Part shown: positions 1-29,608 of the stretch, in pieces
Layout of the letters: every line of letters starts with the position of its first letter
Position numbering within the stretch: the first letter of the stretch is position 1
From: Oikeobacillus pervagus
Lineage (GTDB): Bacteria; Bacillota; Bacilli; Bacillales; DSM-23947
Assembly: GCF_030813365.1 (NCBI RefSeq)
Contig: NZ_JAUSUC010000012.1
Coordinates: 1 to 32,000, forward strand
DNA length: 32,000 bases
Direction: 5' to 3'
Program-made: the position numbers and the translations under genes
The notes under the pieces: generated by a model
Databases searched by the model: none
Told to the model about the DNA's origin: nothing
Seen by the model: the letters and a program-made list of their open reading frames with translations, nothing else

Positions 1-62
1 AAAACATTAATTCAAAGTCAACTCGAACAGTGGATCGATGGCCTTCCTAGTTATATCAAGGC

Positions 63-1523
63 TTATTTGCCGATATCACTCTGCGAAAGTTGAGTAATAT
101 ATTTTAATGCGGTTTGTAATTGTAAATCATTTTCTTCCTTTTTCACTGTTTCGATGATTTTAAGCTCAATTCTCTCCGCCGTTTTCGAATCAATTTCACC
201 CGTAACCTTTAATTTATTTTGTATTTGAAAGGCTTTAACTGCTTTCACTGTTTGATCGCTAAAATATCCATCTGTTCTCCCAGGTCCATATCCTAATCCC
301 TTCAACATTTCCTGAGCATTTTTCACTTGATCATTATTCATTTCCTTTTTTAATGGTTGATCGATTTGTAATGGATGAGCATAAAAATAATTTGGTTGTT
401 TCACTTTAATGGTCGGTTTAATCCCCTTATGATGAATCCAATTGCCGTCAGGAGTTAACCACTTATAAGTCGTTAATTTAATATTACTTCCATCTCCCAA
501 TGGAATCGATTGTTGAACCGTACCCTTTCCGAATGTTTTCTGCCCAATTAGTGTATGGTGACCGGCTTCTTTTAAAGCACCAGCTAAGATTTCTGAAGCA
601 GATGCACTACCTTCATCTATTAAAACAGTAATAGGATACTCTTTCCCTTTCTTTTTCGTTGAAGAGAATGGAACTTTAGCTCCCGACCGCTCCTCTATTT
701 GTAAATAAGGCTTATTATCAGAAAGCAACTCTCGTAAGATTTCCTCCACACTCGGCAAAAGTCCCCCAGGATTTCCACGAACATCAATGAGTAAACCTTC
801 AATCTTCATTTCTTCTAACTTTCTTAATTCATGTGTAAAATCCTTCCCTGTCTTTTCTGCGAATGAAGTAATTTGTATATACCCTATTTTTTTCTGATCC
901 TCACTTTTTATCTTTGCGTAAACCGTATCGATTGGAATTTTGTCCCGCTTCACTTCTACATTAATCGGCTTTGAAAGTCCTTCCCGCAAAATACTCAGTG
1001 TAACAGTTGTTCCCTTTTTTCCACGTATGAGCTTTGTTGCTTTAAACACATCATATCCCTGTACATTTTTCCCATTAATTTTAATAATTTGGTCATGTGG
1101 TTTTAGTCCTGCTTTTTCCGCAGGGGAATCTTTAAATGGAGATACGATTAATATTTTCCCTTCCTTTTCGGTTATTTCTGCACCAATCCCTTCAAATGAA
1201 GATTCCAATGAATCATTAAAATGGTTTACCGTTTCTGCATCCATATAGACAGAATAAGGATCTTCCAACGCTGTTAACATCCCCTTAATAGCCCCTTCTA
1301 CAAGTTGACCACTTTTAATCTTTTCTACATATTTATCAGAAATTAAATCATAAGCTGTTTGTACCTTATGAAGTTCGTCTGGAAGTTTGTACGACTCCTT
1401 TTGTTGTTCATTAGGGATTACCATTTGCTCTTGTCCATCTAATGTTTTCACTCCAACATACGTTCCGCCCGCACCTGTGAGAAAAGAACAGGCAGCGACT
1501 ACAGCAATCCATCTACGCTTCAT
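63..1523 (-). CDS. Carboxy-terminal processing (S41) serine protease with PDZ domain and C-terminal peptidoglycan-binding repeat (CtpA/CtpB-like)
   Basis: ORF 63..1598 trimmed to ATG 1523 (MKRRWIAVVAACSF anchor), which is preceded by a GGGGAGG SD. S41 motifs DVRGNPGG, GSASASEI and FGKGTVQQ are present. A PDZ-like segment and a C-terminal GYFSDQTVKAVKAFQ PG-binding-like repeat are also present. Confidence 0.9.
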   Translation of the reverse strand: MKRRWIAVVAACSFLTGAGGTYVGVKTLDGQEQMVIPNEQQKESYKLPDELHKVQTAYDLISDKYVEKIKSGQLVEGAIKGMLTALEDPYSVYMDAETVNHFNDSLESSFEGIGAEITEKEGKILIVSPFKDSPAEKAGLKPHDQIIKINGKNVQGYDVFKATKLIRGKKGTTVTLSILREGLSKPINVEVKRDKIPIDTVYAKIKSEDQKKIGYIQITSFAEKTGKDFTHELRKLEEMKIEGLLIDVRGNPGGLLPSVEEILRELLSDNKPYLQIEERSGAKVPFSSTKKKGKEYPITVLIDEGSASASEILAGALKEAGHHTLIGQKTFGKGTVQQSIPLGDGSNIKLTTYKWLTPDGNWIHHKGIKPTIKVKQPNYFYAHPLQIDQPLKKEMNNDQVKNAQEMLKGLGYGPGRTDGYFSDQTVKAVKAFQIQNKLKVTGEIDSKTAERIELKIIETVKKEENDLQLQTALKYITQLSQSDIGK

Positions 1524-23336: not shown

Positions 23337-23363
23337 TTATCGGTAAAATAATAGGATTGTTTA
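23337..23363 (-). promoter_or_regulatory. Sigma-D-type promoter of the flaG-fliD-fliS-fliT operon
   Basis: Minus strand reads TAAA-N15-ACCGATAA, about 38 nt upstream of the flaG ATG. Confidence 0.6.
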
Positions 23364-27239: not shown

Positions 27240-27303
27240 CTATTATATAGGGATATCTCAAAACAGTGGGATATTCCTTTTTTCCCGTTTGAACAGGTAC
27301 AGA

Positions 27304-27750
27304 TTATTTAAGTTTCTCCTCTTTACTATCAATATAGCTTTGATATTCTTCAATATATTCTTGTTCCTTTTTCAGCCTTTTCACCTTCTTGATTCCTTTT
27401 TTATATACAAAAAAATAGGGAATCAAGCCGAGCTTTGGTGATTCAGGTAAAGAGTTCATCCATTTGCGATAACGAGACCTATCCACAAATTGCATTTGCT
27501 TCTTTGAACGACAATGTGGACAGGAATGCTCAAGATCTGAGACTCTCCCTCCCCCTTTTTCCAATTGATGAAGAATGAGTTGGTATTCTCTACTATATTG
27601 ACCACATTTTTTACAGAAATATAGATGATTTGCCTTACTCCATCCAGCAAACGGAATGAAATGATTCCACGAATCCTCATAAAATGAAACAACCATAAAT
27701 GCCGCAAACAAAGGAAATGTTATCGCCAAAAGTAAAATGACTAATTCCAT
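27304..27750 (-). CDS. Membrane-anchored CxxC...CxxC zinc-ribbon-like protein, unknown function
   Basis: ATG 27750 (MELVILLLAITFPLFAAFMVV TM) has a GGGGTG SD-like sequence upstream. FCKKCGQ...SCPHCRS are present, with a Lys-rich C-terminus. The 185-aa track ORF probably over-extends the N-terminus. Confidence 0.55.
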   Translation of the reverse strand: MELVILLLAITFPLFAAFMVVSFYEDSWNHFIPFAGWSKANHLYFCKKCGQYSREYQLILHQLEKGGGRVSDLEHSCPHCRSKKQMQFVDRSRYRKWMNSLPESPKLGLIPYFFVYKKGIKKVKRLKKEQEYIEEYQSYIDSKEEKLK

Positions 27751-27920
27751 TTTGACACCCCATTTTTTTGAATCATTACTATCCTCATTTCCACCGACAC
27801 GCCTCAGTATATATTTTATCAAAAATGGGGGGAAATGGTTGGCTATAAAGTGAAACTTCATTCAGTGGGGGTTTTCTTCATCCCCCACTAAAATGTTAGT
27901 TGACCTTATCGGACCTTTAG

Positions 27921-28032
27921 GGGCAGTTATCCTCCACCTATCTTCTTTGTTTCCAAATCATTTTGAGGTGGAGGTTTTACTGCCCGTTAAGGCGGGATAA
28001 ACGATATCCCTGTGACGTTTCTCACAGTTTTT
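27921..28032 (+). ncRNA. Unclassified structured RNA candidate ending in an intrinsic terminator
   Basis: A long hairpin GGGCAGT-TAT-CCTCCACC ...28 nt... GGTGGAGG-TTTT-ACTGCCC is followed by hairpin GGGATA-AACGA-TATCCC, then CTGTGA-CGTTTC-TCACAG plus TTTTT. An alternative CCCG/CGGG pairing bridges the first two helices. No convincing promoter or ORF was found. Confidence 0.3.
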
Positions 28033-28147
28033 AAAAAGATAATATGATACAGTTTTTCATTAGAATCCAACATTGATGGTCTATTGTTAACAAATTGTAG
28101 AAATATGTGGAAATATGTTAAGTTTTGTTAAGTTTTGTTAAAAAACG

Positions 28148-28175
28148 TTGTCGGAATTGAGTGATTTGTGATAAT
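28148..28175 (+). promoter_or_regulatory. Sigma-A promoter with extended -10 driving the riboswitch leader
   Basis: -35 TTGTCG (28148-28153), 16-nt spacer, then TGTGATAAT (TG-N-GATAAT, 28167-28175). Confidence 0.6.
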
Positions 28176-28199
28176 TTAGTACCATAATTAAAAATCTAA

Positions 28200-28306
28200 T
28201 CATCCAATATAACTGTAGATAAAGGCAAACTATTCGAAAGGATAGGACGCAAAGCCTAGGGTCTAAGGTTTAAAACTATGATCGCCTGGCTACCAACATT
28301 GATGGT
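28200..28306 (+). promoter_or_regulatory. c-di-GMP-I (GEMM) riboswitch aptamer
   Basis: AAAGGCAAAC-UAUUC-GAAA-GGAUAG-GACGCAAAGCC-UAGGGUCUAAGG...GAUCGCCUGGCUACCAA matches the GEMM-I core: GGCAAAC, a GAAA-capped helix, GACGCAAAGCC, and the AGCCUAGG/CCUGGCU helix ending in CUACC. The closing P1 is AUC(C)AAU / AUUGAU. Confidence 0.85.
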
Positions 28307-28327
28307 CTATTGACGATCTAATATTTG

Positions 28328-28356
28328 GCTATTCTAAAAATTAGAATAGCTTTTTT
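28328..28356 (+). terminator. Riboswitch expression-platform terminator
   Basis: Perfect 10-bp stem GCTATTCTAA-AAA-TTAGAATAGC followed by TTTTTT, 60 nt upstream of the regulated start codon. Confidence 0.85.
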
Positions 28357-28416
28357 ATTTTGTATACAAAACTGACTGATAAAAGCATTGTAGATCAAAA
28401 GGAGGATGTACTGTAA

Positions 28417-28989
28417 TTGAGCAAACAATGGAATCTCGATGAAATCGAATATTTGGAAGAGAATATCGGTTTTTATAAAGTTTCAACCATCGCTGAAAAA
28501 ATGGGACGTACATATGAATCCGTAAGAATTAAGATGAACCGTTTAGGAATTGCTAACACGAAACAACAAACAGGACTTGTCACCATCGGAGAGCTTGCAA
28601 ATATTTTAAAAGTTGAACGAAATACAGTGAAATGGTGGACACAAAAACACGGATTACCTTATCGAAAGAAAATCACAAAGAAATCGAAAATCTTTTATTT
28701 TATTGACCCTACTAAATTTTGGACATGGGCTGAGAAAAATAAATCAAAAATACAGTTTTTAAATATAGAGCCTCAATCCTTACCTCCAGAACCAGATTGG
28801 GTTGCTGAAGAAAGGAGAAATGAGAGAGAAAAGAAAGTGAGAAAAAAAAGAGTATATCAACAATGGACAACGAAAGAAGATCAAACCCTTTTGGAATTAA
28901 GAAATGAAGGTCTTACTTATGCAGAAATCGGTGAAATAATGGATCGTAGCGTAAACAGTATTGTTCGCCGATATAAACGAATTATCTAG
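28417..28989 (+). CDS. DNA-binding protein with two Myb/SANT-like repeats flanking an excisionase/MerR-type HTH
   Basis: 190 aa. The N-terminal repeat is WNLDEIEYLEENIGFYKVSTIAEKMGRTYESVRIKMNRLGI. The central HTH is VTIGELANILKVERNTVKWWTQKHGLPY. The C-terminal repeat is WTTKEDQTLLELRNEGLTYAEIGEIMDRSVNSIVRRYKRI. TTG start lies 11 nt after AAAGGAGG. Confidence 0.75.
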   Translation: MSKQWNLDEIEYLEENIGFYKVSTIAEKMGRTYESVRIKMNRLGIANTKQQTGLVTIGELANILKVERNTVKWWTQKHGLPYRKKITKKSKIFYFIDPTKFWTWAEKNKSKIQFLNIEPQSLPPEPDWVAEERRNEREKKVRKKRVYQQWTTKEDQTLLELRNEGLTYAEIGEIMDRSVNSIVRRYKRII

Positions 28990-29075
28990 AAAATCCTTGA
29001 ATCATGGGTCGCCCTCTTTCTTCCCTATTGAAAGGATTACTTTTGAAATTTAAATATGAAAGTTCAGCTTTAGAT

Positions 29076-29107
29076 GAGTGGGAGTAACAAACTTCCACTC
29101 CTTTTTG
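29076..29107 (+). terminator. Terminator of the Myb-like gene
   Basis: GAGTGGGAGT-AACAA-ACTTCCACTC followed by CTTTTT. Confidence 0.75.
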
Positions 29108-29266
29108 GTTGGAATCCCCATCTAAGCATGTATTTTCAAACCCTCCTTGTTTTGTTCCACAGTATTTAAAAAGTCAATCGCTGTTCTCATTTTCCCACCA
29201 TGTATATTTTACTTTTGATTAAATTATACTCTTGAATGAAATATATAATTTTGTTAAGTTTATTTT

Positions 29267-29608
29267 ATGGATAGAACAAGTTTAATTAAAGGTCATTTAG
29301 AAATGTGTGTATTAGCCATTTTGTCTAAGGAAAAAAGTTATGGTTATGAAATTATGAAAGAACTTGAAAAATACAATTTAAAATTGAAAGGAGTAGGGAG
29401 TATTTACCCGATTTTGAATAAACTCAAGGACCAGGAATGTGTTGATATGAACCGGGAGATGACAGAAAATGGAAAAGTTCGGGTTTATTATGAAATCAAT
29501 GAAACAGGAAAAATATACCTACAAAATCAAATCAATGAGTGGCTAGGGTTACAACAGGATATAAAATCCTTATTACAAAACAGTTTGAAAGGAGTTCCAT
29601 TGACATGA
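29267..29608 (+). CDS. PadR family transcriptional regulator
   Basis: 113 aa with KGHLEMCVLAILSKEKSYGYEIMKEL...GSIYPILNKL...RVYYEINETG, a winged-HTH PadR pattern. No obvious SD. Confidence 0.85.
   Translation: MDRTSLIKGHLEMCVLAILSKEKSYGYEIMKELEKYNLKLKGVGSIYPILNKLKDQECVDMNREMTENGKVRVYYEINETGKIYLQNQINEWLGLQQDIKSLLQNSLKGVPLT

Follow-up and report, generated by a model that had tools for sequence, protein, structure and literature searches.

A c-di-GMP-I riboswitch leader upstream of a predicted three-module DNA-binding protein in Oikeobacillus pervagus and its Bacillaceae relatives

Riboswitches of cyclic di-GMP class I (c-di-GMP-I, or GEMM-I) have been described upstream of transcription regulators. 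In C. difficile, Cd1 (Cdi-1-3) is a c-di-GMP-I OFF riboswitch that lies, with an intrinsic terminator, upstream of the flgB operon, which includes sigD (PMC6366702), and Vc2 is found upstream of the V. cholerae tfoX-family gene VC1722 (tfoY) (PMC1950547); tfoY is reported to be a motility-linked regulator (Pursley et al. 2018). Here we describe a related arrangement in a stretch of 32,000 nucleotides (nt) of Oikeobacillus pervagus DNA (contig NZ_JAUSUC010000012.1, positions 1 to 32,000 of the forward strand), hereafter the window, in which a c-di-GMP-I aptamer and an intrinsic terminator precede the gene of a 190-residue protein with three predicted helix-turn-helix (HTH) modules. The original prediction, made from the letters of the window, had seen in this locus a transcription-factor tier under direct c-di-GMP RNA control. 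What stands of that view is that the gene behind the aptamer appears to encode an uncharacterised DNA binder; a transcription regulator under a c-di-GMP riboswitch is, however, not new in principle, as Cd1-sigD and Vc2-tfoY precede it (PMC6366702, PMC1950547), and the riboswitch taken alone is a routine case of a well-known class. The new element is modest but concrete: within a phage-related three-HTH family that is uncharacterised, a Bacillaceae clade shows systematic links to c-di-GMP riboswitches, to genes of EAL phosphodiesterases and to chemotaxis genes.

The window shares with Cd1 a Firmicute host, a class I aptamer followed by an intrinsic terminator, a predicted OFF polarity and a transcription regulator placed under c-di-GMP RNA. 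The two differ in that sigD is one gene of many in a 23-kb flagellar operon, whereas the window leader serves a lone 190-residue HTH gene, and a ligand response has been shown for Cd1 but is predicted for the window leader. With Vc2, the window has in common the class I aptamer with its GAAA tetraloop and receptor, the contacts G20, A47 and C92, and a regulator as the target. However, the host of Vc2 is Gram-negative, TfoY is unrelated to the window protein in sequence and fold, and the expression platform of Vc2 is, as we take it, not a simple intrinsic terminator. Bc1-mcpE of the B. cereus group resembles the window in its Bacillaceae host, its class I aptamer with GAAA tetraloop and receptor, its long platform and the position of its terminators, wholly downstream of the aptamer. 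It also belongs to a chemotaxis context, and genes of methyl-accepting chemotaxis proteins (MCPs) flank many orthologs of the window gene. Bc1 differs in having two terminators and no in vivo response to c-di-GMP, whereas a response is predicted for the window leader, and its target is an MCP gene and not that of a DNA-binding protein (PMC11218506).

Our best explanation of the locus, which as a whole we consider to have a probability of roughly 55%, is a monocistronic unit transcribed from a sigma-A-type promoter, with a c-di-GMP-I OFF leader in which the tail of the aptamer serves as antiterminator, and with a product that regulates a low-c-di-GMP programme. The aptamer on which this explanation is built comprises the following parts.

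28214-28297, + strand: c-di-GMP-I (GEMM-I) aptamer, identified by RF01051, by our own covariance model R1 and by helix covariation
28224-28230, + strand: GGCAAAC, read in the sequence
28230-28245, + strand: GAAA-capped hairpin CUAUUC-GAAA-GGAUAG (P1 in Weinberg's naming), from the RF01051 match and covariation
28246-28256, + strand: GACGCAAAGCC, read in the sequence, carrying the AAA that joins the two hairpins
28285-28294, + strand: CCTGGCTACC, read in the sequence

The only above-gathering match that Rfam cmscan returned for the whole window was RF01051 (c-di-GMP-I) at 28214-28297 (+), with a score of 83.2 bits (gathering score 35) and an E-value of 3.4e-15. The match is full length, spanning model positions 1-87 of 87, and model R1 scores the same aptamer at 91.1 bits. 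A permissive sub-threshold rescan of 27240-29300 gave no other credible Rfam match, only a chance-level L20-leader. The leader RNA belongs to the RF01051 class, and binding of c-di-GMP is predicted. GEMM-I RNAs carry a GNRA tetraloop on the first hairpin and a receptor-like motif in the second (PMC1950547); in the window, the GAAA tetraloop occupies 28236-28239, and the second hairpin, UCUAAG...UAUGA, is tetraloop-receptor-like and is aligned by cmscan with the consensus CUAAg...uAuGa.

The aptamer helices covary among the 12-21 related aptamers compared. In 12 related leaders, the two adjacent hairpins with their AAA joiner have helices that are 96-100% paired with compensatory changes (equalled by 0 of 500 shuffles), the GAAA-capped hairpin (helix 2) being 100% paired with compensatory changes at 3 pairs. 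Aptamer and terminator together are 95.3% paired and show 7 compensatory pairs, a level again reached by 0 of 500 shuffles. Moreover, G11 (28224), A38 (28251) and C80 (28293) are invariant in 21 of 21 aptamers from orthologous loci. Since G11, A38 and C81 of Bc1 have been equated with G20, A47 and C92 of Vc2, which contact c-di-GMP (PMC11218506), the window's G11, A38 and C80 correspond by that mapping to these three contacts. The original prediction of a c-di-GMP-I riboswitch is thus confirmed by the covariance-model score; all the elements that it had listed are in their places, and none of them is there by chance. The G at aptamer position 11 agrees, we presume, with specificity for c-di-GMP, given the known G20A variants that recognise cyclic GMP-AMP (cGAMP).

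The remainder of the transcription unit is laid out around this aptamer as follows.

28148-28175, + strand: candidate sigma-A-type promoter TTGTCG-16 nt-(TG)GATAAT, with 9/12 consensus matches and a TG before the -10
28287-28296, + strand: 3' strand of the second aptamer helix with its tail, UGGCUACCAA, including C28293 (the C92 equivalent); candidate antiterminator strand for 28324-28331
28301-28318, + strand: small spacer hairpin GAUgGUC-uauu-GACgAUC between aptamer and terminator, from folding
28327-28356, + strand: intrinsic terminator GGCUAUUCUAA-AAA-UUAGAAUAGCU plus U6, an inverted repeat conserved in 12 leaders
28397-28405, + strand: Shine-Dalgarno sequence AAAGGAGG, read in the sequence, with AGGAGG 11 nt before the TTG start
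28417-28989, + strand: gene of the 190-residue three-module DNA-binding protein (predicted), with a TTG start, from the open reading frame (ORF), Pfam, an AlphaFold2 (AF2) model and orthologs
29076-29110, + strand: terminator closing the unit, a 10-bp stem with 5 G-C pairs followed by CTTTTTGGTT

The transcription unit is monocistronic, with a leader of about 230 nt and a predicted transcription start at about 28182-28185; a -35/-10 pair (GTTGAAT...TATGAT) occurs in orthologous leaders at an equal distance from the aptamer. The perfect 10-bp terminator with T6 that had been proposed is present: its arms at 28328-28337 and 28341-28350 are 10 nt long and 100% complementary (11 bp with G28327.U28351), the T6 tract occupies 28351-28356, and the terminator starts 30 nt past the aptamer, without overlap. 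In the 12 leaders, the stem is 99% paired with one compensatory change. Its arms, GGCUAUUCU and AGAAUAG, are almost invariant among these leaders, which come from different genera, while the loop and the spacer diverge; TTTGGC(T/A)ATTCT and AGAAT(A/T/G)G are near-fixed in the alignment, and the spacer ranges from ~1 to ~40 nt. The spacer hairpin shows paired changes between L002/L003 and L006 (GATGGA..TACCAT versus GATAGA..TCTATT; L numbers denote loci of the ortholog comparison), and the spacer is elsewhere highly variable and almost missing in L070. Because the arm is near-invariant amid a diverging loop and spacer, it probably has a second pairing partner in the conserved aptamer.

In ON-type GEMM leaders, the terminator 5' arm overlaps the 3' side of the second hairpin (PMC1950547). 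Since the terminator of the window lies wholly downstream of the aptamer, unlike in that arrangement, an OFF switch with expression at low c-di-GMP is the most likely reading of the sequence, as had originally been suggested, and OFF logic also follows from the alternative pairings found, all of which put aptamer nucleotides against the terminator 5' arm. With c-di-GMP bound, the aptamer would keep its own 3' strand, including the C92 equivalent, and the freed downstream segment UUUGGCUAUUCU would complete the terminator hairpin, with transcription stopping at U6. With ligand absent, the aptamer 3' strand and tail UGGCUACCAA would pair with the base of the terminator 5' arm, UUUGGCUA; this pairing would delay the terminator and let the polymerase read into the gene, and the protein would be made at low c-di-GMP.

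Folding of the nascent transcript to the end of the 5' arm gives a minimum free energy (MFE) of -30.7 kcal/mol, in a structure where the second helix is open at its base and UGGCUA at 28287-28292 is paired with UGGCUA at 28326-28331. Ending at 28326, ahead of the terminator arm, the transcript with its aptamer intact gives -26.7 kcal/mol. The orthologs have a corresponding competitor in the aptamer tail, (U)GCCAA, which can pair with UUUGGC at the terminator base; the CCAA:UUGG core of this pairing can form in 11-12 of 12 leaders. It grows to 11 bp in L026, in which the hairpin is now CUUAUU/AAUAAG, the arm is now GGCAAUUCU and the tail:arm duplex UUGCCAAAAAA:UUUUUUGGCAA reaches 11-13 bp at -16.4 kcal/mol (z -5).

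The gene downstream of the leader is conserved, and it is real and under purifying selection, because 20 further proteins with 55-66% identity, all orthologs, align with its product end to end, with 32 invariant columns. The window ORF aligns from residue 1 with ATG-starting orthologs, and its translation matches at 100% identity an Oikeobacillus pervagus protein listed by NCBI as 'DNA-binding transcriptional MerR regulator'. The product has a three-module architecture, composed of a divergent Myb-like three-helix module (residues 1-45), a winged HTH of the Xis/MerR/BldC type (residues 55-107) and a module resembling Myb and sigma-70 region 4 (residues 148-190), in keeping with the Myb-like, excisionase-type and Myb-like series of the original prediction. 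The AF2 model, built on the alignment, has a mean predicted local distance difference test (pLDDT) score of 84 and shows helical modules at residues 7-43, 57-107 (with a beta-wing) and 152-189, together with a charged helix at 127-139.

The central module matches HTH_17 (PF12728) at residues 55-86 (28.4 bits against a Pfam cutoff of 27) and MerR_1 at residues 56-88, corresponding to the HTH only. In Foldseek, it superposes on BldC (probability 0.96; template modelling (TM) score to the target of 0.67), so that residues ~55-107 are comparable to BldC and other small winged-HTH binders of the Xis/MerR kind. However, BldC is a single-domain protein, and the window protein adds two flanking modules resembling Myb and sigma region 4 and is without the MerR dimerisation helix. 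The C-terminal Pfam matches, which together cover residues 149-189, are to Sigma70_r4_2 (29.4 against a cutoff of 25.7, residues 154-188), to Myb_DNA-bind_6 (PF13921; 24.6 against 22.9, residues 150-188) and, just below the cutoff, to Myb_DNA-binding (PF00249; 23.4 against 24.4). The N-terminal 48 residues of the window protein match no Pfam family, and 4 of 14 orthologs match PF00249 with this module (best E 0.11). The N- and C-terminal modules align in register by hhalign (E 4.5e-5, probability 69%), with W..E..L....A/G..R.S..SV...R kept; this relation is seen by profile-profile comparison only, as BLASTP of the one module against the other gave no significant match.

No sensor, receiver or ligand-binding domain was found in the protein. 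A whole-chain Foldseek search gave no meaningful match (TM ~0.2), and such poor scores are likely to reflect the flexible linkage of the three modules. As the original prediction had recognised no characterised regulator, so NCBIfam, the PDB sequence search and whole-chain Foldseek returned no characterised homolog; a literature search found no paper combining a c-di-GMP riboswitch with a Myb-like protein, at least eight of the papers that name O. pervagus are by their titles on taxonomy, probiotics or microbiomes, and a PADLOC scan for defence systems gave only a weak HTH match (mad1, 21 bits). Three more specific assignments were rejected. The protein is not a sigma factor, the name that some databases give to homologs: its sigma-like matches are to region 4 only, there is none to Sigma70_r2 (region 2, for core binding and -10 recognition), and the TIGR02937 score is far below its cutoff (19.4 against 42.9). 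It is not a strict MerR-family regulator, as its NCBI name would have it, since the HTH is internal and the AF2 model lacks a dimerisation helix and an effector domain. Nor is it an excisionase equivalog (TIGR01764, 16.2 against a cutoff of 28.8), although the PF12728 fold type is common to both.

The genomic associations of the gene were compared across 66 genome loci (one genome per species) and 7 metagenome loci, in which GEMM-I elements were located by Rfam gathering scans and with our own covariance model. The ortholog lies downstream of a GEMM-I element in 18 of about 52 Bacillaceae loci. The element immediately precedes the ortholog in the window and in L001, L002, L003, L004, L006, L010, L016, L021 and L070; a co-directional gene stands between the two in others, namely an EAL gene in L009, L018 and L041, a CheX gene in L071 and L072, and a small unknown gene in L026 and L034, and the element is found 627 nt upstream of the ortholog in L047. 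In L027 and L035, a tandem GEMM-I pair lies immediately downstream of the ortholog. The leader type with the GGCUAUUCU terminator drives, in other genera, EAL-HTH (L041) and CheX-HTH (L071, L072) units as well.

By our own count, about 38 of the roughly 52 Bacillaceae loci have a GEMM-I element, an EAL/GGDEF gene or an MCP/Che gene within 3 kb. ORF clustering and Pfam show two kinds of neighbour to be the commonest: MCPs (PF00015) lie beside the ortholog in 17 genome loci, and a stand-alone EAL protein of ~240 residues (PF00563, E 3.6e-42), which keeps most catalytic motifs, occurs in 13 genome loci and mostly abuts the HTH gene. Orthologs are also set among CheW and CheY genes, and the neighbours in the metagenome loci comprise EAL, PAS-GGDEF, GAF-PAS-GGDEF-EAL, MCP and CheX proteins. 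In a neighbour-joining tree, all of the riboswitch-, EAL- and Che-linked loci fall in one Bacillaceae clade, deep branches included. The copies from Clostridia and Paenibacillus, which have a phage-like context (single-stranded DNA-binding protein, C5 methylase), and the plasmid copies lie outside this clade and are without c-di-GMP or chemotaxis links.

A protein made of three HTH modules only, with no sensor domain, would have its activity set mainly by its amount. Since the orthologs adjoin, or are co-transcribed with, genes for EAL, GGDEF-EAL, MCP and CheW/CheY/CheX proteins, we infer from domain content and neighbourhood that the protein regulates transcription in the low-c-di-GMP (motile/chemotactic) programme.

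Several observations weigh against this explanation. In the window, the tail antiterminator is short (6 bp with two G.U pairs, or 4 bp as CCAA:UUGG) and shows no covariation; neither antiterminator candidate covaries, because the terminator arm never varies. The full-length MFE always contains the terminator, whether the aptamer is folded or not, and the switch must therefore be kinetic. Bc1 binds c-di-GMP yet does not regulate its gene, owing to the arrangement of its terminators (PMC11218506), so that an intact aptamer and terminator are no guarantee of a switch. The original prediction had asked whether orthologs always carry GEMM leaders; beyond the 18 loci listed above they do not, and about two thirds of the orthologs have no riboswitch upstream. 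A sensitive search of the 66 genome loci with our own covariance model produced no further convincing aptamer, the sole extra being in L015 at 24 bits, and because of this the riboswitch-free orthologs are truly without GEMM-I within 3 kb. Upstream of 17 riboswitch-linked promoters, no shared 9-mer (one mismatch) rose above the AT-rich background (15 loci against 13-16 in shuffles). The regulatory role is read from domain content and neighbourhood only, and the neighbours of the gene in the window itself are not c-di-GMP or chemotaxis genes but encode a MacB-type ABC transporter, a PadR regulator and a beta-lactamase-fold protein.

As regards the antiterminator, the sequence leads us to rank the aptamer 3' strand first and exchange with the P1 strand second, and OFF is predicted by both. 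The original prediction had proposed the latter, in which the P1 3' strand AGGAUAG (28239-28245) would be the operative partner of the terminator 5' arm CUAUUCU (28329-28335), an arrangement that we consider somewhat unlikely. The pairing itself can form, with 7 bp including one G.U at -7.2 kcal/mol (z -2.4 against shuffles), and a duplex of this strength (z ~-2.4) is shared by the window with seven further leaders of its sequence type, with 95.2% of cells pairable in the 12 leaders. The near-invariant arm is also compatible with this partner, and a second, independent sequence class, L009/L047, shows like mimicry (z -3.2 for L047). However, forcing the pairing in the nascent transcript gives -26.4 kcal/mol, against -30.7 kcal/mol for the unconstrained fold, and the pairing needs the opening of a local GNRA-capped 6-bp hairpin that is the first to form and that belongs to the aptamer in its apo and bound states alike. 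It is without covariation, its 3' partner never varying; L026, the leader in which the tail pairing is strengthened, has lost it (-1.2 kcal/mol, z +1.7), and it is absent in L018, L034 and L016. The strand exchange as first proposed is thus retained as a pairing that can form and set aside as the preferred fold.

It is unlikely, in our estimate, that the aptamer binds c-di-GMP in a leader that does not switch in vivo, the terminator being a constitutive attenuator or under the control of another factor, as in Bc1-mcpE of Bacillus thuringiensis. Bc1 provides a precedent (PMC11218506), and the presence of the terminator in the MFE of every full-length fold, together with the weakness of the antiterminator candidates in the window, would fit such a leader. 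In contrast to the dual terminator blamed for the silence of Bc1, the window has a single terminator, and the aptamer, its spacing and the terminator-arm sequence are conserved across genera. The reuse of the same leader before EAL, CheX and HTH genes argues moreover for selection on the whole leader as a unit.

The family to which the protein belongs also has members in mobile elements. With sequences clustered at 50% identity, an exhaustive profile search returned 258 clusters at E<=1e-30 and 1803 at E<=1e-10; extra repeated modules are present in many of them. Residues 1-88 match the phage regulators of PHROG 323, 'transcriptional regulator, D5-like' (E 2.8e-22). Full-length relatives (25-38% identity) are encoded by Bacillus, Lysinibacillus, Clostridium and Streptococcus phages, where the gene lies between the modules for replication and packaging, and also on Priestia, B. 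thuringiensis and Clostridium plasmids; their annotations read hypothetical, SANT-domain or 'sigma factor-like HTH' protein. These relatives, and the Xis/MerR type of the central module, would suit a leftover mobile-element DNA binder (such as a recombination directionality factor, a regulator of middle or late phage genes, or an accessory to replication or packaging) that came to lie behind a riboswitch by chance. We regard this as unlikely: the chromosomal Bacillaceae clade is apart from the phage and plasmid copies, it is flanked not by phage genes but by EAL, GGDEF-EAL, MCP and Che genes, a GEMM-I element recurs upstream at the frequency given above, the TIGR01764 score falls below its cutoff, and no integrase is found nearby in the window.

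That the leader is instead an ON switch, with the gene induced at high c-di-GMP, is very improbable, for although class I ON switches are known in Bacillus, such as Bc2-cap (PMC6366702), the terminator here is fully downstream and set off by 30 nt (5 nt in L070), in place of the overlapping arm of ON-type leaders (PMC1950547), and every alternative pairing found gives OFF logic.

Further features of the related leaders and loci were recorded. The terminator arms copy the strands of the GNRA hairpin in two independent sequence classes, CUAUUC/GGAUAG versus GGCUAUUCU/AGAAUAG in class 1 (12 leaders) and CCAAC/GGUUGG versus AUCCAAC/GUUGGAU in class 2 (L009 and L047, in the leaders after 2094 and 2373, respectively); this mimicry may reflect strand exchange or a terminator born by hairpin duplication. 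The GEMM-I-EAL-HTH units are located at 2008-2943 in L009, 1620-2583 in L018 and 2015-2951 in L041, the last with the terminator GGCUAUUCU as in the window. In L027 (3568-3866) and L035 (3572-3919), the second tandem aptamer is followed by a CGGACUCCG hairpin beside a GGAGG ribosome-binding site and by a small ORF starting MRKVYYRMKYNWH or MKRIYFRIKYNWH (~54 residues in L027); the hairpin at the ribosome-binding site suggests translational control of a small-protein family. L071 contains two more GEMM-I aptamers on the opposite strand (-), one at 590-673, facing an MCP gene at 1-433 (-), and one at 1448-1531, with a terminator-like hairpin and an uncalled reading frame ~80 nt downstream. With the CheX-HTH leader, three c-di-GMP riboswitches lie within 2.5 kb in L071, and L016 also has three. 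A small family of ~80-96 residues without a Pfam match (VLFGTVEYFREEILK...) is encoded between the GEMM-I element and the HTH gene in three genera (L016 1841-2131, L026 2498-2737, L034 2669-2947), and in L016 a DUF2187 protein comes next after it.

In the wider window, late flagellar genes (flagellin, two FliS, FliD and FlaG) are present at 18.6-23.3 kb, ~5 kb upstream of the HTH gene, where a flagellar cluster had been predicted. Directly upstream of flaG-fliD-fliS, at 23338-23363 (-), lies TAAA-N16-CCGATA, which we take to resemble a sigma-D promoter of the B. subtilis consensus. The two sigma-D-like matches in the window are not significant (13 of 100 shuffles reach two), and there is no such match upstream of the riboswitch-controlled gene. 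The flanks of the gene further include a small membrane or zinc-ribbon-like ORF and a DUF1129-like protein.

Three features surround the promoter of the leader. A perfect 20-nt direct repeat, CCAACATTGATGGTCTATTG, occurs at 28067-28086 and 28293-28312 (+), 226 bp apart; the first copy lies ~60 bp upstream of the -35 and the second runs from the CCAAC tail of the aptamer into the spacer hairpin, so that the two bracket promoter and aptamer. No third copy was found in the window (0 expected by chance). The repeat could possibly be read as a pair of operator sites, as the trace of a duplication or as a sequence through which promoter and aptamer might be deleted; its reading as an operator or as a duplicated riboswitch end was not upheld, the repeat being absent from all orthologous leaders. 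Between the divergent gene at 27304-27861 (-) and the riboswitch promoter, 27862-28030 (+ coordinates) is strongly structured, with an MFE of -65.9 kcal/mol (z -4.9), and gave no Rfam match at E<=1. Its hairpins include a long one, GGGCAGTTATCCTCCACC...GGTGGAGGTTTTACTGCCC, one of G5/C5 at 27864-27890 and, at 28010-28027, one that resembles a terminator, with T5 and no obvious + strand gene to terminate. Just upstream of the -35, 28100-28147 (+) carries two copies of GAAATATGT and then GTTAAGTTTT at a 10-nt period; these repeats look like phased A/T tracts (an UP element or curved DNA) and not like a coding or RNA feature.

In E. coli, PdeR (YciR) and MlrA form a pair in which a trigger phosphodiesterase is coupled to a MerR-like transcription factor. 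The Bacillaceae loci resemble this pair by analogy only: in at least 12 of them a stand-alone EAL gene adjoins the ortholog or shares its transcript. The window has no adjacent EAL gene, and the EAL proteins beside the orthologs may be plain enzymes. The riboswitch-EAL-HTH operons are one of few cases in which a c-di-GMP riboswitch is placed on a c-di-GMP-degrading enzyme. Because a predicted OFF riboswitch also drives an EAL phosphodiesterase there, low c-di-GMP would be self-reinforcing through positive feedback. We put forward, tentatively and as less likely than not, that the Bacillaceae clade of this phage-derived three-HTH protein may be an unrecognised master transcription factor of the low-c-di-GMP state, that the OFF riboswitch, EAL protein and factor of L009, L018 and L041 may form a positive-feedback and potentially bistable switch, and that the EAL protein might act directly on the factor as a trigger phosphodiesterase.

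The weight of the finding would rise only if the protein were truly a master regulator, or if the loop of riboswitch, phosphodiesterase and transcription factor were truly bistable. To our knowledge, little has been learnt about the effectors through which c-di-GMP acts on transcription in Bacillaceae. The visible input to the Bacillaceae clade is only a c-di-GMP riboswitch, co-expression with c-di-GMP phosphodiesterases and chemotaxis proteins, or both, and this sensor-less DNA-binding family is a concrete candidate for the missing transcriptional tier.

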